IMG/VR virus record: IMGVR_UViG_3300029913_000009
Span: 1-34,289 of that record
DNA from: a virus
DNA: 34,289 nucleotides
Direction: 5' to 3' (one strand)
Positions 1 to 22,541 of this stretch are shown one piece after another. The notes beneath the pieces are model-generated. The model did no database searches, was not told the origin of the DNA, and was given only the letters and a program-made list of their open reading frames with translations. The translations under genes and the position numbers were made by a program. Within the stretch, counting starts at the first letter, position 1; each line of letters starts with the position of its first letter.

Positions 1-3000
1 AACTGCCCCTTACGGCTCATGACAGCCATCTCGTCGCCATCTTGAACGGCACGCTGAACTACAAACGCCTGACCATATCCGTAGACAATGTCTCCCTTCC
101 TCAATTCACGGGCTTCGATGGTGCGGATGGCTGCGGTTTTTCCATAGACCACCTCCACCTGTTCAGGGTAGAAGTTCACATACGAATCTCCTCCACCCTC
201 ACCCTCATTGTTATATACAATACCGTCATACCCAAGACGCTTCAAGGCTTCGGTGCTTGGGATGTCTTGCGGCCAACCCTCACCAGCCAATTCAGGGTAC
301 TTCCCAGCTTTAACAGCTTGGTTTAAAACAGCATCGTCGTTAACTTCCTTGTCGCCAGCGTAGATACCCTCGTAGTATTTCTTCGCCTCACGACGGGCCG
401 CAGCTTCGTTCTTGGCTTCTCCCTCCCATGAATACTGGGGGGAGTCCTTGTCCATCGTGCTCCGCAGACGAACGGTGAACGTGGGCAGTTTGCCATTGAC
501 TACCCGAATCTGGTCAGGGTAGAAAGCAATCCACGCTTCGTTCTTATACTGTGCTCCGTCGTAGCCCTGCTCTTCGAGGCTCTTCGCCAACTCCTTGAAT
601 TTGGGGTCACTCGGTGATACGTGCAGCGTATCGAGGTTAGCCGGATTGTTGATAGTCAGAATAGCCTCAATGATGTGACCGTCTGGTTGACCCGCGATGA
701 GGTCTTCACAATACTTGCGGCGGACATGGAACATGGCTGGAACTTCAAACGTGTCGAACTGCTTCGTGGTTCCGTGATACGCACGCACAGTCTTGGTGGA
801 TGCTGCCTTCTTACGGTCAATATCCACATTGGAGATAATCTTTACTTGGTTGGACGATAGAACACAGTAGGACTCACCCCCGAACTCTTGGTCATCGCCC
901 TCAGGAACCTTGGCTCCATCAAAGCCTAGATAGTGTAGAGCGTCGGTTACCTTTTTGTTGTCAAATAGGTCGTAAGCCCGGAACCCTTCCTCAAGCTGCG
1001 GCTCACGAATTTTTCGGTCATAGTTGTCACGACCATCATCAATCGCGAGTTCACCCCACTCGGTGCTAGTCATCTCGTCGGCCAACAGGTAATTGACAAG
1101 GTAATCCAACAATCCTGTGGACTTGTTCAGTTCTTCGGCGTGCTCTTCGTAAATCCCCGGCGAATCTTCAGCAGTGTCTGTCTTCTGAATCTTGTGCAGA
1201 GGAATCGGAGGCGTCGTGATGGATGTATTTACCCAGTTAGGGTTGGTTAGGTCGAGTAAGTTGTTGATGGTCAAATTCGCCGTGATAAGGCGACAGGGCT
1301 GCTTGGTGTGTTGCTGTCGATTCTTTGCGTACGCAATGGCTTGTTGCTTACTCTTGGTAAAGAAGAAGGCAAACACGTCAACCTCAAGCGTCATGCCGAG
1401 AAAACCCGAACGCAAACCCTTGTTTCGCTTGAAGTCATCAAAGTCATACGTTGTACCGTGGTAAACGGGTCCAATGGTCAGAGCCTGTTTCTTTATTCCA
1501 GCCCTATGACGAACATCCATGCGACGACGCACAGCCAACCGCTTAGACTGCACACTGGCGGTCTTATCCATGATGGCGGTGTAAGCTGCGGTCTTCGAAG
1601 CGGTAGTAGCCTTGTCTACAGGGGTGGATGAGATAATTTCCAACCTCCCTGAATCAAACACCCCTAAATTTGTGTGACCTTCTCCCTCTTCAAGGAATGA
1701 GTCGTAACCGTTCGCTTTCATCCAACGAACAAATTCAGGGCATTGGGTTGCATCCCAGTTCCTACGGGCAAGCGCCTTAATGTACCCCACTGGGTCGTCA
1801 TCACCATCCAACCAAATTTTGTTGTTCGCAATATCCTCATAAACTTTCTTACCCAAGGGGGTGAAGGTTTTGGGGTCAAGGTAATACCTCTCGCTATAGT
1901 TAAGCAAGTCCACACCATCAAAAGTGCTCTCAACATTAGCACGGACTTTATAAACCCACCCGTGGGCTCCGGCATGTAACTTAGCAAATCCCAAATCCGG
2001 GGTGAGAAAAATAGGCTGCTCGACAACTTCTTTAGTCACTCCCGCTTTGCTCACAGTTTTAAATTGGTCAAACTTATGGGGGCTACCATGATACCAATCA
2101 GCAGATATGGCTTTTGCGGCGGTTTTTTGGTCAAGTGGTTTTATGAGGGAAGGACTATAATTGTCATGGTTCAGGTTGACAAGGTATTCGTCGCCCATAC
2201 GTGTCCATTTGTACTCGTCCGCACGCGGGGATGATGCCGTGACCCGGTTGTCCTTAGGGTTGAACGTGCCAGCGTTCCCAATCGCACTCTTGATTTGACT
2301 AGGGGAGAATACAACAAAGTGGTCACAAATGGTGTGTGAATCTCCCGGAGTGTCCTCAACGTCCTTAAAAACCACCCCATCATGCCCCTTATCTCGCGCA
2401 CTTTTAATAAGGTCACCCACCGGAATCCAGTTACCTTCGGCATCTTTTATGTTGAGGAAGGAGCCGTTTGCTTCAATTACCTTGGGGTTCGTGATACGTA
2501 GGAATACGGGCATTACATTCATGCCTTTTGGTTCTTCTCGCAAAGCTGAGAATTCATGGTTCTCTAATTCAAGGGTGAGTCGCTCTAGGGTTTCCCAATC
2601 TCTCCTTCTCTCAGCTTTTTCAATTTCTTTGGATAGTTGATTGTACTTTTTTTCATGCTCTTCAACGTTATGAACGACTTGCTTACTTGCAAGATCAGCA
2701 TACTCTGAGGCGACTGTAGGGTGGGCGGCGAACCAAAAGCCCATACGTGCCGCGTTGTTTTGAGTAGAACCCCCTCCTCTCTCAGTGTTAAAAGTATCGA
2801 AGCTTTGATTTGTGCCGTGATATACACGCAGTGGCCGACCATGGTCATCAACCACCTTGCTCCCATTGAACCATGCTTGAAACGCAGGGTTCTTGGTAAC
2901 ATCCCCCGGCTGACCCATCCAGTCTTGGTCTTGGGTAAGCCCAGCCCCTTTTTTGGTTTGAAGGCAAAGACCCTCAGGCCATTGGGTTCCCGGCTTAGTT

Positions 3001-3305
3001 GCACACCAGATGGGAACACCACGATTTGCAGCGGTAGTGATGCGGTGCCGCCCGTCGAGCACATCTATCCGGTCGGTGTCGTAAGCATAGATTTTTGGAT
3101 AATCGTCAACTGATTCCAGCAGTTCCAGACGCTTCAACCGGCTGGGATTCCAGTCAAACTTCTCTCCGGGGTGTTGAGACTCCCACAGGGCTTTGAACTT
3201 CCCGGCGTCAATTAAGACGAGTTCATTGTAACCGCTATTTCTGCGGTGTCTCTTATTAAATGGGATTTCGTTTACGTCCAACCCGGTTGGAATGCGGTCT
3301 TCCAT
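1..3305 (-). CDS. Partial giant ORF (N-terminal ~1100 aa seen; runs off window start, no stop in window). Domains: N-terminal ParB-N-like nuclease ('IDVLDGRHRITTAANRGVPIW', ~2991..3128) followed by at least 4 tandem ART-like modules with 'YHGT/S..FDxF' cores near 2811..2828, ~2075, ~1450 and ~770. Polyvalent-type virion/injected protein.
   Basis: Hand-translated minus-strand frame from the ATG at 3305..3303 (SD AGGGG 8 nt upstream) is open to position 1. The ORF track shows only short conflicting ORFs on both strands across 1..3300, as expected when a stop-less ORF was not listed. The repeated peptide module 'xVYHGT...FDxF....G.......GFWFA.....A.EYA ... G[YHF]DG.V......[ED]S[YH]..[FV][VF].P.Q[IV]' recurs about every 650 nt (e.g. 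RVYHGTNQSFDTFNTERGGGSTQNNAARMGFWFAAHPTVASEYA; PVYHGTTYDFDDF; RAYHGTTKQFDTF; WYHGSPHKFDQF). Confidence 0.65.
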   Translation of the reverse strand, partial: MEDRIPTGLDVNEIPFNKRHRRNSGYNELVLIDAGKFKALWESQHPGEKFDWNPSRLKRLELLESVDDYPKIYAYDTDRIDVLDGRHRITTAANRGVPIWCATKPGTQWPEGLCLQTKKGAGLTQDQDWMGQPGDVTKNPAFQAWFNGSKVVDDHGRPLRVYHGTNQSFDTFNTERGGGSTQNNAARMGFWFAAHPTVASEYADLASKQVVHNVEEHEKKYNQLSKEIEKAERRRDWETLERLTLELENHEFSALREEPKGMNVMPVFLRITNPKVIEANGSFLNIKDAEGNWIPVGDLIKSARDKGHDGVVFKDVEDTPGDSHTICDHFVVFSPSQIKSAIGNAGTFNPKDNRVTASSPRADEYKWTRMGDEYLVNLNHDNYSPSLIKPLDQKTAAKAISADWYHGSPHKFDQFKTVSKAGVTKEVVEQPIFLTPDLGFAKLHAGAHGWVYKVRANVESTFDGVDLLNYSERYYLDPKTFTPLGKKVYEDIANNKIWLDGDDDPVGYIKALARRNWDATQCPEFVRWMKANGYDSFLEEGEGHTNLGVFDSGRLEIISSTPVDKATTASKTAAYTAIMDKTASVQSKRLAVRRRMDVRHRAGIKKQALTIGPVYHGTTYDFDDFKRNKGLRSGFLGMTLEVDVFAFFFTKSKQQAIAYAKNRQQHTKQPCRLITANLTINNLLDLTNPNWVNTSITTPPIPLHKIQKTDTAEDSPGIYEEHAEELNKSTGLLDYLVNYLLADEMTSTEWGELAIDDGRDNYDRKIREPQLEEGFRAYDLFDNKKVTDALHYLGFDGAKVPEGDDQEFGGESYCVLSSNQVKIISNVDIDRKKAASTKTVRAYHGTTKQFDTFEVPAMFHVRRKYCEDLIAGQPDGHIIEAILTINNPANLDTLHVSPSDPKFKELAKSLEEQGYDGAQYKNEAWIAFYPDQIRVVNGKLPTFTVRLRSTMDKDSPQYSWEGEAKNEAAARREAKKYYEGIYAGDKEVNDDAVLNQAVKAGKYPELAGEGWPQDIPSTEALKRLGYDGIVYNNEGEGGGDSYVNFYPEQVEVVYGKTAAIRTIEARELRKGDIVYGYGQAFVVQRAVQDGDEMAVMSRKGQ

Positions 3306-3350
3306 CAATTTGCCCCTACTATGACATAGAAAGTCAAGGTGTTTTGGGCA

Positions 3351-4709
3351 TCAAATCTTGTGAACTTCAGCCTTCATGGATGTACCACTTTCCACTCGCC
3401 CGGTGCGCCAATCGATGGGGGATTCCCCATAAGCCGCTTCCACCAGCCGTAGCGCCTTGGCAAAGTCCTCGGGATGCTGCTGCCACCACTCAATCATGCC
3501 CTTCTCAAGGTGAGTTACTCCCTGAAGATCGCGGGTGCCATTCTGAACCGCCTCGTAAACAGGGATGCAAGATGCCCAGACCGCAATCTGCCGTGCATTC
3601 GCTTCGGGCTTCACGAAGACATCTTTGGATTGAAGCGAAATACTCTCCGCAGGAATTGGGGTTTTCCAAAAAGCTTCCTGATAACGTGGAGCATAGTCCA
3701 GCCCCTCTGGAAGCTGCACTCGCAGGACACTGAACTTTTCAGTCAGGGTAGGGTAGTCTTCCCATCCCCATACATGGTTTTGAATGGCTGGAATCGGCAG
3801 TGACAGATAGTGATCGAGAGCCCCATGCCAACGAGTAACAGCATGGAAACCATCCAAGGGTAGCGTGGCTGTGTTGTTATTCTTGCTACTAATGAACGCC
3901 AACCCCTGTTGAACCGCCTTCTTGTACTTTTCCGCCATGGCTGGGTTGTCACGGATAACCCCGGTGTCTTTAGAGAGAGCGTCATATACACTGAGCCTCC
4001 ACCAACGGAGGTACCAAGAGATTCTGTCCTGTTTCTTCAGGTGGGTTTTAGCCCATTGAACTTCCCTCTTTACAATGGATTCAAATTGTGGCTGGTCGGC
4101 AATCAACTGCTTGAACATCGCCTCGTAGTCGTGGGCTACTTTATGGTCAGGCAAGAGAGTGTCCCAAGCTTCCTGTTCAGTCTCAAATACAGGGTCTGAG
4201 TGCAATGCGGGGGTTTCTGTGTGATGACGCGGTAGGAAGATGTTAGCATCTCCGGCTCCGGCAAATTTAGGCTTCGTCAATGGCGACTCCTGTATGTACC
4301 CTTCCTCATCCACAAACGTGTGCGGGTCGAGGTTAGCACTGTAGATGCTCTGCCACTGGTTACCCGTCCAGACTTCAATCTCGGAGTTCACACGTGAGCA
4401 GTAGTACGCCTCATGGCCGGAGTCGTTGGTGCCTTCCTCATCCTTGGTCAGATACTTTGGTTCCACAACACGGAGGACGACCGGCACGAGACCATCCTCG
4501 GCGATGTTATCTGAGTCATTGTAAGCGAACATCTCCGCTCGGTTGAGCCAGAAATCCACACCACCAGCGTCGGTCAGGAACACCTTACCGGCCTTGTAGC
4601 TCTTCAACGCCGGTCCGCCAATGCCGTTGTTGGCATTAGGCAGGAGACCGGAGGTGGCAATTTTGTCAAGATTGGCGAGGTAGGTTACGTGGTATAGAAA
4701 CTTAGGCAT
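3351..4709 (-). CDS. 452-aa protein with DarT/ART-like N-terminal module ('MPKFLYHVTYLANLDKIATSGLLPN ... GKVFLTDAGG ... EAYYCSRVNSEIEVW'). The rest is of unknown function.
   Basis: ATG verified at 4709..4707. It overlaps the upstream stop as 'cATGccTAA'. The N-terminal motif closely resembles the DarT N-terminus ('LYHFTHxxNLxSILxxGLL') and the H-x-T first strand of H-Y-E ADP-ribosyltransferases. Confidence 0.6.
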   Translation of the reverse strand: MPKFLYHVTYLANLDKIATSGLLPNANNGIGGPALKSYKAGKVFLTDAGGVDFWLNRAEMFAYNDSDNIAEDGLVPVVLRVVEPKYLTKDEEGTNDSGHEAYYCSRVNSEIEVWTGNQWQSIYSANLDPHTFVDEEGYIQESPLTKPKFAGAGDANIFLPRHHTETPALHSDPVFETEQEAWDTLLPDHKVAHDYEAMFKQLIADQPQFESIVKREVQWAKTHLKKQDRISWYLRWWRLSVYDALSKDTGVIRDNPAMAEKYKKAVQQGLAFISSKNNNTATLPLDGFHAVTRWHGALDHYLSLPIPAIQNHVWGWEDYPTLTEKFSVLRVQLPEGLDYAPRYQEAFWKTPIPAESISLQSKDVFVKPEANARQIAVWASCIPVYEAVQNGTRDLQGVTHLEKGMIEWWQQHPEDFAKALRLVEAAYGESPIDWRTGRVESGTSMKAEVHKI

Positions 4710-6195
4710 GGTTGTCCCCTACTTTGGAAGCCACAGTTGGAATTTCAGCACTGGCGGTCACGTTCTTCCACGCAGCATTGACGGGTCGCCATTGCCTGTC
4801 GTTCTCAGTTTTATATCCCAGCAATTGCAGCGGCGTTCCGTCTTTCAGACGAATCTCTTTCTCCTCCTCACCAAGCGAGGGGTTTAGATTGCATAGCATT
4901 GTGTTATCCCAGTCAACGTCGCGGTCGGATACTCGTGCCCAAAAATAATATTTGGACTGTCCGCGACCGAAACTCCCCCAATGGGCTTCTGCGGCATCCT
5001 CATCCCATGACCAGTAAGTTCCAAACCCCTGTTTCTTAAGTTGCTGAAGGCTCTCTAATGTCATGCAGCGGTAGACATTAAACTTGCCACCTCGACTGTC
5101 ATGTTCATAAAAGAAATGTTCGTATACACCTCGCAGGTAGTCAGTCGCTTGTTGTAGGGCATCTTCTTCTGCTTCAGGTGTGTTCTCCCCATTGAAATTG
5201 AACCACTCACTGATATTCCAATCATACTCACGAATGAGCCCCTTAATGCCTCCATGTTTCGCGAGGAAAGTGTCGAAATCAGGAAGGTAATCGGAGGCAT
5301 GGGCTGTCTTTTCCTCAGTAGATGCACGTAGCGGTTGAACACTGTGTGGGTTTTCAACTTCTTCGAAGAAGCTGCTCTGGCCGTCGCCTTCAAGGTCAGC
5401 GGTCTTCAACGTGGTAACATTTTTAACATCTTTACTGTCAAAAATGACGTAGTTACAAGTTCCGTCACCTCTGACTCGGCTGTCTCCATCAAGGTATTTA
5501 ATGCCCTTGACACCGAGAGAGCGCAGGTATTCGCTGGCCGCTTTGTCAGAGCCCTGTTGAACCGAAATGTCGCGGTAAACGGAGCGACCCGTGATGATGC
5601 CATCTATCTTGTTGTGGTCGGCCAAGTCACCCCAATCCGGACTGGACTCTTCAGCACCTTTTCTCGCGTTTGCGATTTCATTCACAAGCACCTTGCGAAC
5701 TAATGGTGATTGCTCACTGAGGGGTTTGTCCCAGTCGAGTAACACATTGTCTTCGGGGATGTCAGCCTTGTACAACTGACCTCCGGACTGCTTCTCAATG
5801 GGAGTTTTGCAGAACTCCAAGAATCTCTTCTTGGTTGTCCTATGGTTTCCATTGAAACCGCCCATGTAACGAGCCCCCAGTTCTTGGTCGGCCCAGTCCT
5901 TGTCCACCGGGCCGTACTCCTGCGCCAACCAAGCCATTTCGGCTGGAACGTAATCCGGGTCACGCCGCGTGATTCTCCGGCCATTGACCACATAAGACCA
6001 GTCGGGCTTGTTCTTCTCCAAAGATGTTCGATAATACTCAGCAACATCTCGGTTTCCCGCGAAGTACAGTCCCCCACCCGTAGGTCTGATTACCTTCACC
6101 CGTGTTGATTCTGTCCGTGTCGAATGAATCGAAATGGAAAGGAGTGCCGTGATAAACTTCCTTGCCCAACTTCGCCCCCGGCACCATGGCCTCAA
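4702..6195 (-). CDS. ORF continuing the polyvalent protein in the +1 frame (TTG-initiated as listed; no good independent start). Its N-terminus completes an ART-like module ('TGGGLYFAGNRDVAEYY ... GVKGIKYLDGDSRVRGDGTCNYVIFDSKDVKNV'). This is probably the C-terminal ~445 aa of the polyvalent gene, separated by a frameshift at 6071..6075.
   Basis: It overlaps the polyvalent 3' end by 158 nt in another frame. The peptide 'GLYFAGNRDVAEYY' matches 'GFWFAAHPTVASEYA' of the gene-1 modules and PARP 'GIYFADMVSKSANY'. The 'YHGT' first half of this module is encoded just upstream in the polyvalent frame. Confidence 0.55.
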   Translation of the reverse strand: MRPWCRGRSWARKFITALLSISIHSTRTESTRVKVIRPTGGGLYFAGNRDVAEYYRTSLEKNKPDWSYVVNGRRITRRDPDYVPAEMAWLAQEYGPVDKDWADQELGARYMGGFNGNHRTTKKRFLEFCKTPIEKQSGGQLYKADIPEDNVLLDWDKPLSEQSPLVRKVLVNEIANARKGAEESSPDWGDLADHNKIDGIITGRSVYRDISVQQGSDKAASEYLRSLGVKGIKYLDGDSRVRGDGTCNYVIFDSKDVKNVTTLKTADLEGDGQSSFFEEVENPHSVQPLRASTEEKTAHASDYLPDFDTFLAKHGGIKGLIREYDWNISEWFNFNGENTPEAEEDALQQATDYLRGVYEHFFYEHDSRGGKFNVYRCMTLESLQQLKKQGFGTYWSWDEDAAEAHWGSFGRGQSKYYFWARVSDRDVDWDNTMLCNLNPSLGEEEKEIRLKDGTPLQLLGYKTENDRQWRPVNAAWKNVTASAEIPTVASKVGDNHA

Positions 6196-9100
6196 GACTT
6201 GGCATCAAACTGTTGCCTTCTACACGCTCGGGCTGAAGGGCATACGCATTAGAGCCCTCACCGTCGTTCTTGTCCATGTTGGGGAACGTGGTGTCGGACA
6301 TCGGGGTCTGCTTGTGACTCCCAAATTTCATCACACCCACCAGCTTTAAGCACCGAGGGTTGTAGAAACACACACCTCCGAAGGATTCATCAGCCAATCC
6401 GTCAACTCCCTTTTGTACCATCATTTTGGGGAAGTTTGGATTTGCATCAGGACGTACTTTAAGTGCGGCGTACTCGTCCCAGTCATCCGATTCTTTCAAG
6501 TCGAGGATATGTCCACCAATGATTTCAAACTCCAGCACAACTCCACCTTCTTCGTCATCCGAGAAGTCGGCGTAGTTTGATTTGGCAAGGTCAGGATCGA
6601 GTGCAGTGTAAAATGCTGTACCAAAATAGCCGGGGCTGCATTTGGTTATATCCACTCCACGCTTGCGAATGTCTTCTGCTGACTTTGAATCAGTGCCGTG
6701 GTAGACGTGGGTTCCTTTTAGAATTGAAGCGGTTTTATTCACCTCTTCTGCAAAGCCGGGGTTGCACTCGGGGCATGTGCATATTGGGCACTCATGACTT
6801 CCGCAATAGGCATGATATTTTTTCTGGATAGCAGCGCCCGGTGGAACTACGAGTATGTCAGGCGGTCCGAACTGGTCATGGGTGCCGTCGATGATCGTGC
6901 CATCTTTCATCACGTTCCAAGAATGGTCGCCATGGCCGTTGTGTCCCTTATCAGGAGTGGGGTACAGGTAGAATCCACTGGCTTTTTCCCAGCCGAACTT
7001 GTTCTCAAGTATGTCGGCCATGGTGTGACATTGGCCTTCTCCATCCTCCTCGCGTAGGGTTTTTAGAATCGCCCGGATTTGTGGTATGTCGATTGTTTTC
7101 TTGGCACCAACCTTTAACTGGTTGTAGTCGGCGATGTATGGCTCAAATACTTTAATTTTCTGCTCGATGTCCTTCTTTTGTGCAGGGTCTTTAGCACTCT
7201 TCAACATATCCACAAGCGCCTCATACTGCTGCACAATTGCGGCCTGTTCTTCACGTGAGTGATTCCACATGCGGTCACTCTTCAACCGAAGGTCTTTCAG
7301 TGTCTGAACGATTGTGTTGGGGTCTTTCATCTTGCCGTATGGGTCAGCTTCATTGGTCTTTGGGAAGCGATTTCCTTGTGGGTCGATTTCCGACTGCATG
7401 ATGTGAGTGGTCTCATGTGCTGTAAGCTGGTCTGCAATTTCGGTGTGTAGGAACATATCTATGTATTTAGGGTTGACATAAACTACCCGAGTACCTTGTT
7501 CCACCTGACAGATTTCATCTCCACCCCCTTCTCTAGTGGAGGGCACGCCAGCTTTGAACGTGATTGTATTTGGGTCTCCTATCCGGCTTTGAATAGTTTG
7601 TGGTAGGCGCTTAATCATGTCATGCCCTACTTGATTCAATTCCTTGTCATGAGGGTTAGAAGGAGGTGTGGTGGTGTGTTTTGAGACCAAGGCAGTACCG
7701 AGTGCTCCTGAAAGCAACGCGACACCAAGCCCCTTTAATACATCCTTTACTCCAGCCTCTTTTGTCACTCCACTGGGAACATACAGCCCAGCTTCCTTGA
7801 TGTACTCAGCTTCTCCCATATCCAGAATCCGTTTGAGAGACTTGAGATAGATGATGGCTTCACTGAAATTGCGGTGACCCAAGGCAACAGCCGCGAACTT
7901 GGCGTATCTCTGAGCGCGGTTATAAACAGTCAATCGGCTATGAGCGTTACCGTAAGCCTCCCACAGCTTGAAAAATTCTTTCGCCAGTTCCTCATAACTG
8001 CGACCCTTGAGCTTCGGGTTGTTGTCTTCCACTTGAGCCCGGTAATTGTTCTGCATGTTCTCACGCACTTCGCGTTCGAACCCATACTCATTGGTCAGCC
8101 AGTAAAGGCACTTATCTACCTTGTCTTTTACAATTCCGTACTGCCCCTGAAAGTAGGTGAAGTGTTGAGCCATACGGTTCGTAATGTCACCACAGTGCTC
8201 CAGCGCGTGAGTGCCAATGCCAGCACCTAAAGGATGCATCTGGCAACGAAGCATGGCCTTCTCAGGCTCTCCTCTTTGGTCGGAAGCTAGTTCATCGAAC
8301 TTCTTATCTCGTTCATTTTCTACAGCGGCTGTCTTCACCTTCTTCCCACTCAAACCAATAGCAGAGGGTGGGATGAAGTCGTAGAAGATGCGTTCGTTGG
8401 GGTTAAGCATCCCACGCACAGGGCCACCAGTATGTCCCCCAATGTCGGTGCCATATTGGTCACGCTTATAGGTGGCAATGGTGACACGGGCAGGGACTTC
8501 GGTGAGCCCAGCCATCTGTGCCTGTGCGATACGATGGTTGCCTTCGATCACAAGGGCTGTGTTGGTATCCTTAAAATAACGGAGGGTAATAGGCGACCGG
8601 ATGCCATGGCGCTTGATGTCTTCGACAGAATCATGAAACGCATCCTCACCATGCCGGTTGTCCTTTGGGCTCCAGTGATACTCACGCAGGGGGAGTAGCT
8701 GAGAGATGGGCACGTACTCTACCCACGGCTCGGATAACTCGCGTGCGTATGCCTGAGGAAGCCAGTCCTTATACTTATCAGACTCCATCATGGTTTCCCA
8801 TTTGGTGCTTTCATCCTCTCCGCGTGCATACGCTTCCTTAACGCTGCTGGTTTTAATTGACGTGTTAATTGACGCGATGTTGGTCTTAATTGACGCGATG
8901 TTGGTCTTAATTGACGCGAAATGTTGGATACTGGCTGTCTTGTCTTCACTCTTCACAGCTACGAGCACGGTGTTCTTGGCATACTTCATTTTGTCATCTT
9001 CAATGTCAACCAACTCTTGAGCAATCTCCATCGCTCTTTCGCGAGTCACGCCTTCACGCATCTCTTGACGCAGGAGTTCAACGGTATCATCATTGTCGTC

Positions 9101-11986
9101 ATCCCACAGCGGCTCCTCGGCGCTGAGGTCATTCTGGTCAACTGAGAACATGTCTCCAGTTTCCTTGTTCCACGCATAGACAAAAATATCGGGTAGTTTG
9201 GCCAGTTGTTTCCAAACGGCACGGCCACCATCGGTCTGCTTATCGCCTGATACGATGGTTGGGCAGTGACCATTTTTAATCAACCACGCATACAGCTTAG
9301 CGGGTAATCCTAGCCCCAAATACCAGTTGTCAAAAGCGATAGCACCGATGCTGAAGTAATGCTCTTGCTGATCCATTTCACAGAACCCGGCATTCCTTTT
9401 ATTCACACTGTCGTACACCGCAAAGGTGGGTTCCTTTTCATCGTAATTTGCTTTGCTTATTTGATAGGAGCCCATCTTGCCAACGGGTGATGCGGGTTTT
9501 GGATCAAACTGGGATTGTGTGAAAAAGTCCCACCGTCTGGACATGACCCTGAACAAGCTCATTGGACTGCCAGTGTCTCGAATTCCATGATCCCACTTGT
9601 TGATGGCAGTCTTCGTCGCCTTGAAGTCGATGTAATAGCGGCCCTTGGACTTCTTCACTGGGTAACGTTGTGCCAACCGCTTCCATGCCTTGTGAGCATC
9701 CGGCTGCATATCGGTGCTAGACCATAGGCGGTCGGCACCCTGCTTCTTCGCTTCTTCAATCGCACGGTCGTAGAGCATCTGACCGAGGCCAGTTCCACGC
9801 CAGTCATCCTCAATAGAGACATCGAACACATAGTCCTTGCCGTTTTCCTTATCCAGTTCAATGTAACCAACCGGCAACGTGTGTTGAGAGTGCGGATTCG
9901 GGCGGCGGTCGGGTGTCCATGCTTCAATGACAAGCGTGTCGCCTCCTATCATCCTGCCGGGGCGCACTTCGAAAGTAATCTTGCTGAGGTCTTCCTCGCG
10001 GTCGTTGTATTTCTTGTAACCAAAATCAGGCATGGCGGTCTTCACATAGCCCCGCAACGGCTGCTTAATCAACGCATCAACCTGAGGTCGTCCTTCGAAT
10101 ACCTGCACTACTTCCAAATCTTCCGGCTTGCAAAGAAAGTTGGTGTAGGTTTCCCACGTATCCACAGCCGCAGCCCGAGGAGAGAAGTTTCCGTTCACAC
10201 CACCATCGGCGATGAGCCGGTTCAACCCATCTACTGTTTTCTTCATGGTTGCGTAGTGGCGGGTCGATTCAAAGTTCTTGATGCGACACTTTATGATGGC
10301 CGGTTCACCATTCAACCGGGAGTTCTTTACATCACGAGTGCTGTATTTGCCGAGAAGGTAGGCTTCGATTTGACGTGGGACTTCGCCACCGCCCCCTGCC
10401 CAACGACCGGCAACCCCACCACCCGGTGAGGTGCTGACTAAATGGGCTTCACCTTGATAGCTCCGTCTGGTCATTCCCAGCGTTTTGACCATCTTCTTGG
10501 GGATGTCGGCCTCGGTCATGTCGTATTTTGCCAGCACATCTTGTAGAATGGCATCGAACTCAAGCCCACGGAAACCCTCCTTGAGAATTAAGTTGGCTAT
10601 TTCTACTGTAGTTCCATGATAGACGATACCTGACAGAGCATCCTGCTGCAAGCTGTTCCATACATCCTGACCGTCAGTTGCAGCGGCGGTTTTCCTTCCC
10701 TGAGACTTCAAAGGAATGCGATACCGCCTTTGAGTGTCATCGTATTCTACGGGATAACGTTCACTGAGGCGCTTCCAAGCCCCAACTGCGTCTTTACTGA
10801 GGTTGTTGGGGGTTACGTCTGAATACAGATACTCTGCGCCCCGTTTCTTAGCCTGTGCAATAACGCGGTCGTACAGCATCTGACCTAAACCAGTGCCACG
10901 CCATTCCGGCTTGATATTAGAATGGGTAATCGCGTAGGAAAGTTCCTCTCTGTTCAAAAACAATTTCTCGGCGGTGACGTATCCCTGCGTCTTCTCCATG
11001 GATTTTTTGATGGGGTCGATTGCTTCGGCCTCAAGCAAATGAATGCCGTGGTCCGGCTCCTGAATGCGGAGTTTTTTCAAGTCTTTTTCACGATCATTGA
11101 ACTTTGTGTAGTTGAAGTCAGGACTGGCAACTTTAGACGTAGTTTTATGCTTCGCTATCCTCGGGGGTTTAAGCTTGAACTGTTGCAAAATGTCTTCACC
11201 ACTATCCCATAGTTCCTTGAGTCTGGACTTCTGCTCGTCCGTTCTTGGCATGGAGGAACCATGATACTTAATCATAGGAGCCCCATACTTCATTAGGATG
11301 GGGTCAGTGCTCATGAACAACCGCTTGGGATAAGTCATCTTTCCATCAGCACATTGGCCGAGGTATTCTTTCTGCTTAGGGCTCAAGCGAAGCGAGATTT
11401 GCCAACCCAAAGTGCTTCCACTGCTGTCGGCAGAGATGAGAACGTAAAAAGGACGGAGGTTAGTATCGTCAGTTACTGTGTCTTGGTCAGATGTTTTTGT
11501 AACAAAATTGGCACCGTACTTGGCATTAAAACGTTGAGCTATTGCCATCCACTTAGGACCGTGACCACCGTCACCACGATGAATACCACGCATCATTTTG
11601 TATGTATGAAACCCGTACTTCTTCAGGTCGGCAACTTCATTAACAAGGAAATCCTCTGAGTGGGCCAACTCATGAGCCAAAATCCTACGAAGTGTACGTT
11701 CATCTCCCGTTACTCGTTTTTGAATTTCAATCTCAGTGTTATCCCACCAGAAAGGCTTCCCTTCTTTTAGACCATATTGCCAATGACATAGACCGAGGGT
11801 GTTGCCTTGACTGTTGTTTATTTTTATCTTGGGTCTAGGGAGCCCCGGAGCTAGTACGGTCATCATCTCATTGATGATAGCGTCTATCTTACTTAAAACT
11901 TCAAAGTTTTGGTTTGCGGCTGTTTTGAACGCAGTAGTGCCCGTCACTTGTGCCGCATCTGTTTTTTGAAGGAGTTCGTTCCGCAT
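6038..11986 (-). CDS. Giant polyvalent protein (1982 aa from ATG 11986; TTG at 11992 also possible). Domain order: SprT-like zincin, GNAT, ART-like, GNAT, GNAT-like, ASIKTNI tandem repeat, ParB-N, HExxH zincin, C4 Zn-ribbon, ART (H-Y-E), truncated C-terminal ART.
   Basis: Single 5.95-kb ORF. Motifs: 'RILAHELAHSEDF...GGHGPKW' (SprT); 'WRGTGLGQMLYDR[VA]I..AKK.GA' twice (GNAT); 'ITLRYFKDTNTALVIEGNHRIAQAQMAGLTEVP' (ParB-N); 'LTAHETTHIMQSE' (HExxH); 'VYHGTDSKSAEDIRKRGVDI...GYFGTAFYTA...GGVVLEFEII' (ART); 'CGSHECPICTCPECNPG'. The architecture matches phage/conjugative-element polyvalent proteins. Confidence 0.85.
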   Translation of the reverse strand: MRNELLQKTDAAQVTGTTAFKTAANQNFEVLSKIDAIINEMMTVLAPGLPRPKIKINNSQGNTLGLCHWQYGLKEGKPFWWDNTEIEIQKRVTGDERTLRRILAHELAHSEDFLVNEVADLKKYGFHTYKMMRGIHRGDGGHGPKWMAIAQRFNAKYGANFVTKTSDQDTVTDDTNLRPFYVLISADSSGSTLGWQISLRLSPKQKEYLGQCADGKMTYPKRLFMSTDPILMKYGAPMIKYHGSSMPRTDEQKSRLKELWDSGEDILQQFKLKPPRIAKHKTTSKVASPDFNYTKFNDREKDLKKLRIQEPDHGIHLLEAEAIDPIKKSMEKTQGYVTAEKLFLNREELSYAITHSNIKPEWRGTGLGQMLYDRVIAQAKKRGAEYLYSDVTPNNLSKDAVGAWKRLSERYPVEYDDTQRRYRIPLKSQGRKTAAATDGQDVWNSLQQDALSGIVYHGTTVEIANLILKEGFRGLEFDAILQDVLAKYDMTEADIPKKMVKTLGMTRRSYQGEAHLVSTSPGGGVAGRWAGGGGEVPRQIEAYLLGKYSTRDVKNSRLNGEPAIIKCRIKNFESTRHYATMKKTVDGLNRLIADGGVNGNFSPRAAAVDTWETYTNFLCKPEDLEVVQVFEGRPQVDALIKQPLRGYVKTAMPDFGYKKYNDREEDLSKITFEVRPGRMIGGDTLVIEAWTPDRRPNPHSQHTLPVGYIELDKENGKDYVFDVSIEDDWRGTGLGQMLYDRAIEEAKKQGADRLWSSTDMQPDAHKAWKRLAQRYPVKKSKGRYYIDFKATKTAINKWDHGIRDTGSPMSLFRVMSRRWDFFTQSQFDPKPASPVGKMGSYQISKANYDEKEPTFAVYDSVNKRNAGFCEMDQQEHYFSIGAIAFDNWYLGLGLPAKLYAWLIKNGHCPTIVSGDKQTDGGRAVWKQLAKLPDIFVYAWNKETGDMFSVDQNDLSAEEPLWDDDNDDTVELLRQEMREGVTRERAMEIAQELVDIEDDKMKYAKNTVLVAVKSEDKTASIQHFASIKTNIASIKTNIASINTSIKTSSVKEAYARGEDESTKWETMMESDKYKDWLPQAYARELSEPWVEYVPISQLLPLREYHWSPKDNRHGEDAFHDSVEDIKRHGIRSPITLRYFKDTNTALVIEGNHRIAQAQMAGLTEVPARVTIATYKRDQYGTDIGGHTGGPVRGMLNPNERIFYDFIPPSAIGLSGKKVKTAAVENERDKKFDELASDQRGEPEKAMLRCQMHPLGAGIGTHALEHCGDITNRMAQHFTYFQGQYGIVKDKVDKCLYWLTNEYGFEREVRENMQNNYRAQVEDNNPKLKGRSYEELAKEFFKLWEAYGNAHSRLTVYNRAQRYAKFAAVALGHRNFSEAIIYLKSLKRILDMGEAEYIKEAGLYVPSGVTKEAGVKDVLKGLGVALLSGALGTALVSKHTTTPPSNPHDKELNQVGHDMIKRLPQTIQSRIGDPNTITFKAGVPSTREGGGDEICQVEQGTRVVYVNPKYIDMFLHTEIADQLTAHETTHIMQSEIDPQGNRFPKTNEADPYGKMKDPNTIVQTLKDLRLKSDRMWNHSREEQAAIVQQYEALVDMLKSAKDPAQKKDIEQKIKVFEPYIADYNQLKVGAKKTIDIPQIRAILKTLREEDGEGQCHTMADILENKFGWEKASGFYLYPTPDKGHNGHGDHSWNVMKDGTIIDGTHDQFGPPDILVVPPGAAIQKKYHAYCGSHECPICTCPECNPGFAEEVNKTASILKGTHVYHGTDSKSAEDIRKRGVDITKCSPGYFGTAFYTALDPDLAKSNYADFSDDEEGGVVLEFEIIGGHILDLKESDDWDEYAALKVRPDANPNFPKMMVQKGVDGLADESFGGVCFYNPRCLKLVGVMKFGSHKQTPMSDTTFPNMDKNDGEGSNAYALQPERVEGNSLMPSLEAMVPGAKLGKEVYHGTPFHFDSFDTDRINTGEGNQTYGWGTVLRGKPRCC
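6503..6709 (-). other. ART (H-Y-E type) domain of the polyvalent protein.
   Basis: 'VYHGT' ... 'GYFGTAFYTA' ... 'VVLEFEII'. Confidence 0.6.
7193..7675 (-). other. Second HExxH zincin-like region of the polyvalent protein ('LTAHETTHIMQSEIDP').
   Basis: HExxH with a downstream Glu. The family is uncertain. Confidence 0.4.
8453..8710 (-). other. ParB N-terminal (ParB/Srx-fold nuclease/NTPase-like) domain of the polyvalent protein.
   Basis: 'LVIEGNHRIAQAQMAGLTEVPARV', a G-x-H-R ... G...VP motif. Confidence 0.7.
8851..8927. repeat. In-frame 21-nt tandem repeat 'ttaattgacgcgatgttggtc'. Two perfect copies plus two degenerate flanking copies. Encodes (ASIKTNI)n in the polyvalent protein.
   Basis: Read directly in the sequence at 8851..8927. 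Protein: 'FASIKTNIASIKTNIASINTSIKTS'. Confidence 0.9.
9623..10030 (-). other. GNAT acetyltransferase domain 2 (internal duplicate of domain 1).
   Basis: 'WRGTGLGQMLYDRAIEEAKKQGADRLW'. At the DNA level it is similar but diverged from domain 1 (10868..10906 against 9760..9802). Confidence 0.7.
10253..10630 (-). other. ART-like module inside the polyvalent protein ('IVYHGTTVEIANLILKEGFRG ... GRWAGGGGE ... NGEPAIIKCRIKNFE').
   Basis: H-G-T strand, Gly-rich aromatic segment and a trailing acidic strand, as in the other modules. Confidence 0.45.
10718..11110 (-). other. GNAT acetyltransferase domain 1 of the polyvalent protein.
   Basis: 'WRGTGLGQMLYDRVIAQAKKRGAEYLY', the acetyl-CoA-binding motif A (R/Q-x-x-G-x-G/A). 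Confidence 0.7.
11498..11815 (-). other. SprT-like zincin domain within the polyvalent protein (HELAH at ~11660..11674).
   Basis: 'HELAH' followed by 'GHGPKW' downstream, the SprT/DUF45 pattern. Confidence 0.6.
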
Positions 11987-12018
11987 CCGCAATCCTGCCT
12001 ATATAAGAAAGCGGTAGT

Positions 12019-12336
12019 CTAAAGGACTAAATCCCGTATTTCCTTGAACCCCAACAGCCTCTGGCGTTCTATGTCGAAAGCTTTACCATGCCGGTGACCG
12101 CACTTGATGTGGATCATTTCGTGGATTAAGGTGACTTTGGAGATAGCTCTCCACCCCCCAACGAAAGGGTTGATTCGGATTCTCCATATCTTTTCTTCTT
12201 CCAGATATAAACAGTCACCGAAGGTGGCTCCCCCTAATGGCTCCCACCAAACCACAGCGTCAGGTAGTTCTCCACCAAAGTATAGTTTGTTGAACTTGAT
12301 ATAGTATCTCTTAAGCTGGCGGTCGGATTTTAGCAT
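12019..12336 (-). CDS. Free-standing SprT-like zinc metalloprotease (105 aa from ATG 12336; GTG at 12342 listed).
   Basis: 'LYFGGELPDAVVWWEPLGGATFGDC...TLIHEMIHIKCGHRHGKAF'. SD GGGAGG 9 nt upstream of the ATG. Confidence 0.6.
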   Translation of the reverse strand: MLKSDRQLKRYYIKFNKLYFGGELPDAVVWWEPLGGATFGDCLYLEEEKIWRIRINPFVGGWRAISKVTLIHEMIHIKCGHRHGKAFDIERQRLLGFKEIRDLVL

Positions 12337-12363
12337 TTCCACAGCCTCCCGGAGCCCGAGGCT

Positions 12364-12903
12364 CTACTTGAAGGAGACGGTAGTCATCGACTGAAGAGCT
12401 TTTAGATAAGTAAGACCAGCAGTTTTTACAGTGGTACTGCTGTTTTTAGGCGTCCTACCCTGCTCTTCCTGATGCGCCTCAATCGTGTCGAAGGCATAAT
12501 CGAAGGGGACTTCAGAGATGTCACCCACGCGGTCGTCATCCCAGCCGGTTGGATAATGGGCGAGGTACATTTCTAAAGCTGAATCCAAATTCGGGAAACC
12601 CAACATAATCTTGTACTCATCTAGCTTCCCCTTTGCATCCAACTGCTCTATCACAAACACCTTGTCCGACGCCTCATCTTCGCCAATATAAACATCCAGA
12701 CCCTCCCCGTCCCTGCCGTTAACGTCGGAGACGTAGCCATAATCGCATTGCATGGTCCTCTTCCAAGGCTTGCCCTGTTCATCCTTGCCTGTACGTACTG
12801 AATTTTTTGGCCATTCGATTACAATGGGAATGCCTCGGTACTCAGTGGAGTGCCGCTGAGACAATTTTTCAGCTATGCGAAGAAACTTGGATTCAAAATT
12901 CAT
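12364..12903 (-). CDS. ppa: Inorganic pyrophosphatase (family I) homolog, 179 aa.
   Basis: 'VIEWPKNS' against E. coli PPase 'VIEIPANA'. 'DYGYVSDVNGRDGEGLDVYI' against '[20 protein letters not shown]'. 'DAKGKLDEYKIMLG' against 'DEAGEDAKLVAV'. The size matches. Confidence 0.55.
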   Translation of the reverse strand: MNFESKFLRIAEKLSQRHSTEYRGIPIVIEWPKNSVRTGKDEQGKPWKRTMQCDYGYVSDVNGRDGEGLDVYIGEDEASDKVFVIEQLDAKGKLDEYKIMLGFPNLDSALEMYLAHYPTGWDDDRVGDISEVPFDYAFDTIEAHQEEQGRTPKNSSTTVKTAGLTYLKALQSMTTVSFK

Positions 12904-19868: not shown

Positions 19869-20369
19869 TTAAGATTCTCCCCACACGGGCGAGAACACCC
19901 TTGACTTCAAATACTGAACCGCAGCCATAAACCGCTCCAAATTTTCTTCGAATTGACCGATACCCACGTTGCAACGATGGCACAGAAGACCACGTACACT
20001 CTTTCGTTTGTCCGTCTTTGCGACTGCATGGTCATGGTCAACGTAGGGTAGTCGGCTTTCAGTGAACTCCAAACGGCAAATCGCGCATTTGTTATCTTGC
20101 AGCTTGAGTAGCAACAAAAAATCATCGGTGCTTAGACCATACAGACGTTTGAGCGATGAGGATTTTCTGATTGCCTTATACTGTTCGGGGTGGCGCTCAT
20201 TCCAATTTCGTACATAGCCTTTGAATCGGTCTGAGTTTTCTGCATACCACTTTTTCTGACGTAAACTCTCGCATTTGTTACAGGCAGACTTAAGCCCATC
20301 CTTGCTTCGTTTCCTCCTACCAAACTTACCGGGCTTACCACACTTGGTACACAATTTGACGACTTCCAT
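19869..20369 (-). CDS. Endonuclease VII-family (His-Me finger) protein with N-terminal Zn-finger. Putative free-standing homing endonuclease or resolvase.
   Basis: 'CAICRLEF...VDHDHAVAKTDKRKSVRGLLCHRCNVGIG'. ATG at 20369 preceded by GGGGGTG. Confidence 0.7.
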   Translation of the reverse strand: MEVVKLCTKCGKPGKFGRRKRSKDGLKSACNKCESLRQKKWYAENSDRFKGYVRNWNERHPEQYKAIRKSSSLKRLYGLSTDDFLLLLKLQDNKCAICRLEFTESRLPYVDHDHAVAKTDKRKSVRGLLCHRCNVGIGQFEENLERFMAAVQYLKSRVFSPVWGES

Positions 20370-20382
20370 TAAGAAACACCCC

Positions 20383-22095
20383 CTATAAAAGGGGTTCAAT
20401 AGTCTCCTCTTTTGGTAACTCGATACCATGGTCTGTAAGGAACCGCTCAGCCATACGTTTTATGTAGTCGGCTTCCACTTGCAGTTTCGTCACAAGGTCT
20501 TGATTTGGGTCTCGTACACCCTCAATCTGCTGCCGCTTGATTCCCAAGATGTCTCCCATAATCGGGTCTGAACCATGCTCGGACAGCAGATAATAAATCG
20601 TGCATGGTTCGTCCTGACCATCGCGGTGGATACGACCGACACACTGCTCATGAACTCCCGGTGACCAGTCAAGTTCAGCAAACACAGCAAGGTGACATAC
20701 GTCCTGTAACCCATCCATACCCGCTCCGGCACGCAGCGAGACAAGCAGGACTCGCGACTTGCCGCTGATGAGGGCTTGCTTGGAGGCTTCCTTTTGATTC
20801 GGTGTCTCGGAGCCGGTGTACATGACCGGGTTGAATTCCTTCAACCGCTCCATGAGGATGTCGTAGACCTCCCGATGCCATGCGTAGACCACCACGGGCT
20901 CCGTATTGTCGGCGATGAGGAACTTGACAAACTCGGCCACGTACGGTGCCTTGGCGATGCCGGTGGCTTGCCGCATCTTGATGTCAAACTCGCCAGCCGC
21001 TTGCATCTTCTGGCCTTTGAAGTCTTGCGTCTGTTTGAGAATCAGCTTGGCAAGTTCGATAGCCTGACCCTTCATGTGGTCGAGTGCCTTGGCGTCCACA
21101 TCAATGTGGTGAGGCACCACAGTGACAGGCGGGAGTTCACGCTTGACCTCGATGCGGGTGCGGCGGAGCATGAGACCGTTCTCGCGTGCGAACAGACCGA
21201 ACGCTGCGGGGTCTTTGATTTTCAGCTTGTCGCCGAACTGGTAAATGCACCACTCGCGAATGAACTCATCCTTGGTGCCCAGTGAATCCGGGAGCAGCAC
21301 GTCAATGATGTTGAAGATTTCTCCGCCGTAGTTGTAGATGGGCGTGGCCGACGTACCGAGGCGGAAGGTACACGCATCGGCGATGTGTTTGGCCGCGTTG
21401 TATTTCTGCGTGCCGTTGTGGCGGAGTTCCTGAATCTCATCAAATACAACCGACTTCAGCAGGGGGGCGAGGGTCTCTGCCCACCCGCCAAGTTTGGCGT
21501 AGTTAGTGATGAACACATCGGGTAATCTACCCTTAGTGTACTTCAGGATGTCGTAAGGAGTACCCTTCTTCAGAATGTGCGTGGTGAGGTCAGTGAACTT
21601 GTTCACTTCGTCACGCCACTGAAAAGGCAAGTGAGTGAGGGTGACGACAAGCGCCGGGAGCGTCTTCGGTTCGCTGAGTCCCGCGATGGCTGTGCAGGTT
21701 TTACCCAGCCCAACGTCGTCAGCCAACAACAAACCACCAGCCGTCAACCACATGTGAGCGGCCAACGCCTGATATTCCCGTGGAGGAATCTTCAACTTGA
21801 AAGCTTCCCGCTCCATGTGTCCATTGAGGAGTTGTTCAATAAGAGACTGACGCTCACGATGCTCCTGAGCCCGTTCAGCGAGAAGCTCAAAAGGGTAGAC
21901 TTCTAATGGATAGCGGTCGAGGAACCACTGAAGGTCGCGGCAATTCTCAGGCGTAGCAGAGATAGACTGCTTGCCGTACTGCCACGTATCAATCTTCGCG
22001 AACACACGTTTAAGCCTGATAGCAACGTGCGGCTCGACCACTAAGTCCCAACACTGATTACGTTTATTGTAGGTACACGAACCATAGGTACGCAT
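20383..22095 (-). CDS. SNF2-family DNA helicase/translocase, 570 aa.
   Basis: 'LLADDVGLGKTCTA' (motif I), 'VVFDEIQELRH' (motif II), 'SLRAGAGMDGLQ', 'QCVGRIHRDGQ' (motif VI). Confidence 0.85.
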   Translation of the reverse strand: MRTYGSCTYNKRNQCWDLVVEPHVAIRLKRVFAKIDTWQYGKQSISATPENCRDLQWFLDRYPLEVYPFELLAERAQEHRERQSLIEQLLNGHMEREAFKLKIPPREYQALAAHMWLTAGGLLLADDVGLGKTCTAIAGLSEPKTLPALVVTLTHLPFQWRDEVNKFTDLTTHILKKGTPYDILKYTKGRLPDVFITNYAKLGGWAETLAPLLKSVVFDEIQELRHNGTQKYNAAKHIADACTFRLGTSATPIYNYGGEIFNIIDVLLPDSLGTKDEFIREWCIYQFGDKLKIKDPAAFGLFARENGLMLRRTRIEVKRELPPVTVVPHHIDVDAKALDHMKGQAIELAKLILKQTQDFKGQKMQAAGEFDIKMRQATGIAKAPYVAEFVKFLIADNTEPVVVYAWHREVYDILMERLKEFNPVMYTGSETPNQKEASKQALISGKSRVLLVSLRAGAGMDGLQDVCHLAVFAELDWSPGVHEQCVGRIHRDGQDEPCTIYYLLSEHGSDPIMGDILGIKRQQIEGVRDPNQDLVTKLQVEADYIKRMAERFLTDHGIELPKEETIEPLL

Positions 22096-22370: not shown

Positions 22371-22541
22371 CTATTGAATGTCAAACCCGAGAAGCTTCCA
22401 CAGTTCTTGTGCCATCTGTACCTTCCCATGTTTAATACCCAAGTCGTAGGTATCTTGATAGTCGCAGGGGAACTCATACACATCGTCTCCATTGGGCTGG
22501 TTTTTTAGTCCTTCAAGATACGCTTTCAAGTCGATTGACAT
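22371..22541 (-). CDS. Small hypothetical protein (56 aa).
   Basis: ORF; ATG verified at 22541. Confidence 0.4.
   Translation of the reverse strand: MSIDLKAYLEGLKNQPNGDDVYEFPCDYQDTYDLGIKHGKVQMAQELWKLLGFDIQ

Follow-up and report, generated by a model that had tools for sequence, protein, structure and literature searches.

Predicted ADP-ribosyltransferase modules of the ART-PolyVal family, repeated in the giant polyvalent proteins of a large uncultured phage

Of the domains by which polyvalent proteins modify other proteins, ADP-ribosyltransferases (ARTs) are the commonest (Iyer et al., 2017, J Bacteriol, PMC5512222). One such family, ART-PolyVal (alias ‘N4-ART’), is known from the virion RNA polymerase of Roseovarius Plymouth podovirus 1 (CBX87992.1) and from a P. 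aeruginosa prophage protein with 12 copies (WP_023121221.1); its triad is described as His on strand 1, Tyr on strand 2 and Asp on strand 5, and it is placed in the Tox-ART-HYD2 clade (PMC5512222). The same paper names as a model Alt of phage T4, a virion-packaged ART. Here we describe a block of giant proteins encoded on the minus strand at positions 1..11992 of a stretch of viral DNA of 34,289 nucleotides (nt), IMG/VR record IMGVR_UViG_3300029913_000009, hereafter the window. By sequence comparison, the module repeated in this block is ART-PolyVal (Pfam PF18760), an ADP-ribosyltransferase of phage and plasmid polyvalent proteins.

The locus shares with the published ART-PolyVal proteins the family itself, as recognized by hidden Markov model (HMM), the His/aromatic/Asp signature and the setting in giant phage proteins with zincin, GNAT, ParB-like and InPase domains and multiple copies of the module. 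It differs in having about 12 copies over two proteins (about ten of them in a single chain of 4167 amino acids, aa), in the presence of other ART-fold families in the same chains, in the compact (∼100 aa) or degenerate form of several copies and in a lineage-specific KTA[AS] motif at domain boundaries. The likeness to T4 Alt is one of proposed use only, namely a capsid-carried ART that is injected with the DNA and modifies host proteins as infection begins; Alt itself is of the R-S-E (Alt/VIP2) clade, is a single-domain effector outside a polyvalent chain and has no sequence relationship to the modules here. DarB and DdrB of phage P1 are also giant, head-packaged, multi-domain proteins, DdrB being proteolytically processed and having a zincin domain, and an InPase-domain open reading frame (ORF) of the block matches a DarB-like family in PHROGs, whereas the methyltransferase and helicase domains of DarB are absent from the block. 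Nor are ARTs among the domains for which the P1 Dar proteins are known. The locus is thus a large, extreme example of a kind of protein described in 2017, with an architecture and copy number that were already known. An initial annotation of this DNA had called the module density unusual, which does not hold: 12 copies had been published before and a homologue of only 1746 aa (P0001) has nine. Of the homologues, 33 carry a single copy, 19 carry two and 12 three; a further one has four, and P0001 is the one with nine.

The four consecutive minus-strand ORFs of the initial annotation were borne out by ORF and frame analysis, and their summed length, given there as more than 4000 aa, is 4034 aa:

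3..3305, minus strand: g1, the N-terminal 1101 aa of a 4167-aa polyvalent protein; an open frame that runs off the window, the other 3066 aa lying beyond position 1
3351..4709, minus strand: g2, an ORF of 452 aa with an N-terminal ART-fold domain and a C-terminal part without assigned function
4702..6195, minus strand: the g3 reading frame, 497 aa from a TTG (465 aa in public gene calls), from frame analysis
6038..11992, minus strand: g4, 1984 aa when begun at a TTG, with public gene calls of 1982 or 1975 aa; the likely ATG is at 11986

The Pfam model PF18760 matches g1 over four stretches (E = 5.7e-48, 163.7 bits), which upholds the assignment to the ADP-ribosyltransferase superfamily made in the initial annotation. 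In the full-length g1 together with an in-silico fusion of g4 and g3, the tripeptide YHG occurs 16 times (0.59 expected from composition) and HGT 13 times (0.75 expected). Cut-out segments were scanned one by one against the Pfam model (gathering score 31.2 bits) and with a local family HMM iterated on 65 homologues; conservation was read from an alignment of 23 homologous domains. The window holds seven ART-PolyVal-type modules of ∼100 to 250 aa, the length varying with inserts. Four reach the Pfam gathering score (88.5, 42.7, 31.5 and 33.0 bits), the other three being divergent or partial, and one lacks the His strand. These modules, and one further candidate in g4, are as follows:

2280..2858, minus strand: module 1, g1 aa 150-342, with VYHGT, GFWFA, PVFLRITNP, GHDG and VVFSPSQIKSA (Pfam 88.5 bits)
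1638..2102, minus strand: module 2, g1 aa 402-556, divergent, with WYHGS, PIFLTP and GYDS (19.2 bits with Pfam at E = 2.2e-3, under the cut-off; the local HMM gives E = 6.4e-9 over the N-terminal half)
828..1475, minus strand: module 3, g1 aa 611-826, with a long insert, VYHGT, AFFFT and GFDG (Pfam 42.7 bits; local HMM E = 1.1e-20)
492..794, minus strand: module 4, g1 aa 838-938, compact, with AYHGT, GYDG and IAFYPDQIRVV (Pfam 31.5 bits, just over the cut-off; the local HMM matches both halves)
144..491, minus strand: module 5, g1 aa 939-1054, degenerate, the C-terminal half only (GYDG...NFYPEQVEVV) without an H-G-T strand (Pfam 16.8 bits, profile positions 106-136 only; local HMM, C-terminal half, E = 2.9e-8)
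5410..6166, minus strand: split module, fusion aa 1943-2194, with VYHGT in the g4 frame and GLYFAG, GVKGIKYLD and NYVIFDSKDVK in the g3 frame (in-silico fusion, Pfam 33.0 bits; local HMM E = 1.5e-26)
6338..6718, minus strand: compact divergent ART-PolyVal-like module, g4 aa 1759-1885, with VYHGT, AFYTA, GVDG and CFYNP (hhalign against the family alignment 94%, E = 1.4e-7; local HMM E = 2e-3)
10073..10639, minus strand: unverified ART-like candidate, g4 aa 452-640, beginning IVYHGTTVEIANLILKEGF..., of which only the first strand and helix are ART-like

Together with an ART-fold domain at the start of g2, the seven modules make up the eight or more that the initial annotation had counted in 1..11992. 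Its statement that all four ORFs contain the same ∼200-aa module needs correction on two points: the g2 module belongs to another family and is without the GxDG...P.QIK part, and the 497-aa ORF, taken to carry a whole module, has only the C-terminal two-thirds of one whose H-G-T strand lies at the end of g4 in another frame. The compact module at g4 aa 1759-1885 has no Pfam ART-PolyVal match and gives E = 0.013 with the Pfam PARP model, which reaches only E 0.013-0.023 for one module. For the candidate at g4 aa 452-640 the NCBIfam RNA 2'-phosphotransferase model gives E = 9e-3 over aa 419-477 and hhalign 35% over ten columns; searches of Pfam and of PDB sequences gave no match and the candidate is not confirmed. 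A further motif, ‘IKYHGSS’ at g4 aa 243, was set aside as a chance occurrence (local HMM E = 0.89).

An AlphaFold model of module 1 (g1 aa 150-342, from a 23-sequence alignment) has a predicted local distance difference test score (pLDDT) of 88 and a predicted template modelling score (pTM) of 0.74, and it resembles the ART-fold structures ParT/RES, MbcT, tankyrase and exotoxin A. With Foldseek against the PDB the top five matches are PARP4 and ParT, all weak (E ∼0.1); all-helical matches in the same list fit a helical hairpin inserted in the module. When the module alignment was run as a profile against the PDB, cholix toxin alone was returned (E = 0.94). The initial annotation had raised a non-ART fold, such as a β-sandwich, as the outcome that would count against it; the predicted structure of this module is an ART fold and not a β-sandwich.

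Among the 23 homologous domains V-Y-H-G is invariant and the following T nearly so; S191 is invariant, and F43, D160-G161, P186, Q188 and K190 are nearly invariant. Immediately before F43, in the place of the PARP ‘Y’, the residue is Y, F, W or H. As judged from this alignment, the conserved acid is the Asp of GxDG, giving an H-Y-D triad, and the conservation fits the published H-Y-D description of the family. The H-Y-E triad proposed in the initial annotation, with its acid in ‘[ED]S[YH]’, falls with this, that position not being conserved. In the window the strand-1 His (Y-H-G-T) is found in six of the seven modules and is missing in g1 939-1054. A Tyr at the exact strand-2 position occurs only in the split module (GLYFAG); GFWFA, PIFLT, AFFFT and AFYTA have W or F there, the AFYTA copy having its Tyr one residue further on, and one copy beyond the window has N. 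The position is aromatic, though not always Tyr. The GxDG motif reads GHDG, GYDS, GFDG, GYDG, GYDG and GVDG; in the split module it is replaced by GVKGIKYLD, as also in its paralogue g1 2416-2644 and in the homologues of both, which makes this a subfamily trait. Most copies keep both H and D, and some may be inactive given their altered or missing triad positions.

The modules could act on NAD+ (nicotinamide adenine dinucleotide) itself, as NADase or NAD+ phosphorylase, and so deplete or reshape the host pool early or blunt NAD+-dependent defences, although we think this improbable. The nearest solved folds are RES-type toxins, and of these MbcT degrades NAD+ and ParT ADP-ribosylates Prs. These RES/ParT/MbcT toxins (PDB entries 6d0h, 6fkg, 9r35 and 8qnl) are stand-alone proteins with antitoxins and other catalytic residues, at 4-11% identity. 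The likeness is at the fold level only (6-11% identity). The grouping of the family with the Tox-ART-HYD2 toxin clade (Iyer et al., PMC5512222) speaks for an action on NAD+, but a dozen diverged paralogues are hard to square with one small-molecule substrate, the diversification pointing instead to different macromolecular targets. The paralogous modules are old, the best pair being 34% identical and most pairs below 30%.

Beyond the window, the full-length g1 of 4167 aa was put together from two loci, JGI 3300029911 Ga0311361_10000489 (83.7 kb) and IMG/VR contig L007, joined over a 5221-nt overlap with 0 mismatches; the 4167-aa protein itself was not among the homologue-search results. The local HMM finds ten ART-PolyVal-type modules in it (starts at aa 150, 402, 611, 838, 939, 1248, 1556, 2310, 2416 and ∼2975), of which the tenth (aa 2979-3130) is weak (E = 0.014), and two in g4/g3. 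The split g4/g3 module is 34% identical over 260 aa to the g1 module 2416-2644. Full-length g1 also has five unverified ‘LYH[GAV]T’ ART-like candidates with only weak PARP or Tpt1 matches; treating all ‘LYH[GVA]T’ modules as one family was rejected, as there is no alignment past the first strand and helix. Two of the g1 modules have partial profile links to the g2 family (that at 1705, 72%; that at 3824, 55%). Besides ARTs, g1 contains an HExxH domain, a cREC_REC domain (E = 8e-17) and a GNAT domain.

The second ART-fold element of the block is in g2, which has no significant Pfam, PHROG or NCBIfam family:

4305..4709, minus strand: N-terminal domain of g2, aa 1-135, with LYHVT, KVFLT, PVVLRV, D90 and IEVW; an ART fold of a family without a Pfam model

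The AlphaFold model of this domain (pLDDT 93.9) identifies it as an ART-fold domain, of a separate family for which Pfam, PHROGs and NCBIfam hold no model. It is not a copy of ART-PolyVal, as hhalign gives ∼1% and aligns only the PVVLR strand. The closest known systems are the Tpt1/KptA RNA 2'-phosphotransferases and the DNA ADP-ribosyltransferase DarT; the Pfam Tpt1 model (PF01885) scores only 11.5 bits against a cut-off of 26 and the N-terminal RNA-binding lobe is lacking, so that membership of this two-lobed family was rejected, and the g2 family has an invariant set of its own (H7, T9, F44, W54, P76, D90 and W119). A profile search returned more than 224 relatives, mostly stand-alone proteins of 160-200 aa without Pfam domains, and an exhaustive search 1124 cluster representatives at E ≤ 1e-3, some lying within proteins of 1200-2300 aa, including a polyvalent protein (P0016).

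The ART-PolyVal module shared by g4 and g3 is split by a single nucleotide. The end of g4 reads ‘...EVYHGTPFHFDSFD...NQTYGWG’ and g3 goes on with ‘(G)LYFAGNRDVAEYY...’ in the +1 frame, the frames meeting at a variable homopolymer:

6071..6075, minus strand: a run of five G (C5 on the plus strand) with a 1-nt indel polymorphism; G5 gives split g4 and g3, G4 a single protein of 2429 aa

The window and all eight sister assemblies that cover the site (L001, L002, L004, L006 and L008-L011) have G5, and one further assembly (L003, JGI 3300029914) has G4 and a continuous g4+g3 ORF. On this comparison g3 is no gene of its own but the C-terminal end of g4, severed by a 1-nt frameshift. A second, independent 1-nt indel, an extra G at g2 nt 784 (window ∼3926), splits g2 into 273 and 183 aa in L008-L011; apart from it, identity is 99.86% over 20.8 kb. 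With either variant, natural populations contain a truncated effector protein. Near-identical copies of the phage (>99.8% identity) occur in several metagenomes, with the exact g2 protein on 15 public contigs and sister contigs of up to 116.6 kb. Because each has its own AGTAGGGG motif, Shine-Dalgarno-like, and ATG (that of g1 at 3305), g1 and g2 are separate genes; read-through from g2 to g1, with the intervening stop in the same frame, was rejected on the same ground. An alternative genetic code was also rejected, the long ORFs being intact in table 11. A megablast search of 1..12000 against phage and plasmid records gave no match.

These frameshifted variants, tolerated in nature, are among the observations that would suit modules serving mainly as non-catalytic building blocks of an internal capsid body or ejection apparatus: repeated α+β domains, retained because they pack or bind, with a largely decayed active site. 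The best structural match is a domain of gp28, an ejection protein of cyanophage A4 found in the pre-ejectosome (PDB entry 9k3a chain B; PMC12002296), to which its authors give no enzymatic role and whose matched part they describe only as an ‘alpha+beta’ domain; there is no match at the sequence level. Triad positions are substituted or missing in several copies, and g4 has a hydrophobic segment of 20 residues (about aa 1418-1437) as a membrane-inserting ejection protein might have. On the other hand, an invariant V-Y-H-G with a nearly invariant T, and an almost invariant D-G and P.Q.KS, all over distant homologues, look like an active site and are more than the fold needs; most copies keep H and D, and the domains to which the modules are linked (GNAT, InPase and zincin) are plainly enzymatic. 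We consider a mainly non-catalytic role unlikely.

The companion domains and the two ORFs upstream of g4 are as follows:

11516..11851, minus strand: SprT-like zincin metallopeptidase, g4 aa 48-159, with HELAH (Pfam PF10263, 29.0 bits, cut-off 25.6)
9677..10954, minus strand: two GNAT acetyltransferase domains, g4 about aa 347-420 and 707-772, either side of the ART-like candidate (Pfam Acetyltransf_1, 63.7 bits, two stretches; Acetyltransf_CG, aa 347-385)
8483..8653, minus strand: ParB N-terminal-like domain, g4 aa 1114-1170 (Pfam ParB_N, 21.5 bits against a cut-off of 26.3, E = 2.4e-4; PHROG ParB-like partition families, E = 3e-5)
7391..7441, minus strand: HExxH motif (AHETTHIMQ), a second putative metallopeptidase of g4, from sequence (weak eCIS_core match, E = 0.064)
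12019..12342, minus strand: small SprT-like zincin ORF of 107 aa, upstream of g4 in the same block (Pfam SprT-like, 30.3 bits, E = 3.9e-7)
12364..12903, minus strand: InPase-domain ORF of 179 aa at the upstream end of the block, the domain being one that is characteristic of polyvalent proteins (Pfam PF18823, E = 2.3e-36)

The order of domains in g4 is SprT-like, GNAT, ART-like candidate, GNAT, ParB_N, hydrophobic segment, HExxH, compact ART and the start of the split ART. All of the neighbours named in the initial annotation (ParB-N, SprT-zincin, GNAT and HExxH) are thus present, ParB_N at a score below its cut-off. The hydrophobic segment (VLKGLGVALLSGALGTALVS; window 7681..7740, minus strand) is possibly membrane-spanning. 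Zincins form a hub, with SprT-like domains in g4 and in the 107-aa ORF and two further HExxH motifs. The PHROGs matched by the InPase ORF are annotated as minor head protein, virion structural protein and DarB-like antirestriction. The whole block comprises five genes (the InPase ORF, the small SprT-like ORF, g4+g3, g2 and g1), ∼22 kb and ∼7300 aa, with about 12 ART-PolyVal domains, at least one other ART-fold family, GNATs, ParB-N-like domains, zincin/HExxH peptidases, InPase and cREC-REC.

With several unrelated effector domains per chain in g4 and g1, zincin hubs and a phage origin, the proteins bear out the class named in the initial annotation. On domain content, a large uncultured phage would have its effector block here, coding for polyvalent proteins as Iyer et al. 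(2017) define them, chains of effector domains unrelated to one another. The phage genes are a terminase large subunit, an SNF2 helicase, an exonuclease, endonuclease VII and homing endonucleases, and an IMG/VR viral contig carries part of g1; a search for the terminase among the collected viral contigs gave no match. A protein of 190 aa with a NADAR domain is encoded at 22526..23098 (minus strand; PF08719, E = 3.9e-27). NADARs reverse guanine ADP-ribosylation in DNA and phage copies neutralise the DarTG1 defence (PMC11543638, PMC11825919), so that the phage would carry both many ARTs and an enzyme that removes ADP-ribose.

The NADAR gene, an ADP-ribosyl-nucleic-acid hydrolase 10 kb from the block, suggests that the phage deals with ADP-ribosylation of nucleic acids, and this, together with the DNA-metabolism genes that flank the block and the structural genes not found nearby, is what might be expected if the block were expressed inside the infected cell as early or middle genes (for example in anti-restriction, or in DNA protection with the ParB-like domains) and not delivered with the DNA. 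We hold this to be very improbable: stacked effector chains of 2400-4200 aa with zincins are the published signature of injected polyvalent proteins (PMC5512222), and the InPase ORF matches PHROGs of virion proteins.

Several other observations concern the remainder of the genome. The terminase large-subunit ORF (31668..34220, minus strand) has an insert of the LAGLIDADG type, resembling an intein or homing endonuclease; its start is Cys-rich with no clear ribosome-binding site, so that the N-terminal ATPase part may be encoded further upstream, past the end of the window. An endonuclease VII/HNH gene (19869..20429, minus strand) overlaps the helicase gene, and a GIY-YIG-type homing endonuclease lies downstream of g1 (L007 13565..14194, minus strand). 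Taken together, these three predicted elements suggest a genome rich in selfish endonucleases. An ORF of 770 aa (27011..29323, minus strand) has no PHROG or Pfam match and contains about five repeats like ‘..[KR]GRWPEFEKKL..’.

The giant proteins share a short linker motif, K-T-A, usually KTA[AS]. It occurs 13 times in full-length g1 (1.5 ± 1.2 in shuffled sequences) and nine times in the g4/g3 fusion (0.8 ± 0.9), 22 times in all where ∼2.3 are expected, an enrichment of about tenfold, and is the fourth most over-represented tripeptide behind YHG, HGT and VYH. The 6221 aa of other window proteins have it once, in the InPase ORF.

132..12426, minus strand: 14 K-T-A(-A/S) motifs, the KTA codons being at 132-140, 1557-1565, 1587-1595, 2118-2126, 5302-5310, 5398-5406, 6728-6736, 8327-8335, 8933-8941, 9605-9613, 10034-10042, 10685-10693, 11918-11926 and 12418-12426

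All of the sites lie between domains, at nearly every boundary and often right before the H-G-T strand, as in ‘EEKTAA-WHGT’, ‘AEKTAASNKLYHGT’ and ‘VNKTASILKGTHVYHGT’. Similar motifs are found in the closest relatives P0022 (‘EKTAAAKTAAI’), P0057 and P0002, and over all 65 homologues pooled the enrichment is mild (42 against 26 expected). Two more sites (aa 86 and 489) are in an acidic, scaffold-like coiled-coil ORF of 720 aa that adjoins g1 (L007 9937..12099, minus strand) and has no family match. A short imperfect tandem peptide repeat, ‘ASIKTNIASIKTNIASINTSIKTS’, follows directly after one KTAS site (g4 about aa 1018-1057; window 8822..8941, minus strand). The sequence x-x-A↓S (the arrow marking the cut) resembles the sites of assemblin-type proteases, and we tentatively put forward KTA[AS] as a candidate protease cleavage site. 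Processing of polyvalent proteins by metallopeptidases has been predicted, with no site named (PMC5512222). It is conceivable, although still doubtful, that the giant proteins are effector polyproteins which a phage protease cuts at K-T-A↓A/S, in the capsid or after injection, into at least 25 enzymes.

The best explanation of the locus, which we consider probable with some reserve, is an injected arsenal of polyvalent effectors whose ART domains modify host macromolecules. The polyvalent proteins would be made late and packed into the capsid. A prohead protease, or the zincin domains of the chains themselves, may cut them at the K-T-A↓A/S linkers, and they would enter the host along with the DNA. 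There the ART domains would use the H-G-T strand and the aromatic G-x-[YFW]-F strand for binding NAD+, and the Asp of GxDG for the transfer of ADP-ribose to host macromolecules. Each of the deeply diverged paralogues (mostly <35% identity) may have a different target, and copies without H or D are probably binding or structural modules. Late synthesis, packaging, delivery and NAD+-dependent modification are taken here from the literature on the family, the domain identity, fold, conserved positions and phage context being those of the locus itself; that the proteins are packaged in the virion and injected with the DNA is argued at the level of the family, with hints from the PHROGs of the InPase ORF and from the structural likeness to an ejection protein.

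A number of points weigh against this explanation. Several copies have W, F or N for the ‘Y’, in two copies GxDG is replaced by GVKG and one copy is without the H strand. In PHROG and Pfam scans of the large neighbouring ORFs, genes for capsid, portal, MuF and protease were not found close to the block, which is bordered directly by DNA-metabolism genes and lies 20 kb from the terminase. KTA is read as a candidate cleavage site from its position and enrichment. Since near-identical natural genomes carry frameshifts that truncate g4 and g2, not every part appears to be under strict selection. In the literature searched we found no report of enzymatic activity of any ART-PolyVal domain, and no paper showing ART domains of polyvalent proteins to be active or naming their targets.

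The general picture of 2017 is unchanged by these results, which add two modest leads, the KTA linker motif and the ART-fold family of g2; the latter is widespread and could be added to the domain databases. If the polyprotein reading is true and the five further candidates in g1 are real, the proteins would supply ∼17 ART-fold domains of at least three families, including the g2 type, and KTA[AS] would be the first defined processing code for polyvalent proteins. A candidate cleavage motif in any case makes the long-predicted processing of these proteins checkable, and the locus offers a compact test bed for the family, with about a dozen diverged copies in one phage, catalytic positions that are intact in some and altered in others, and natural frameshift variants.

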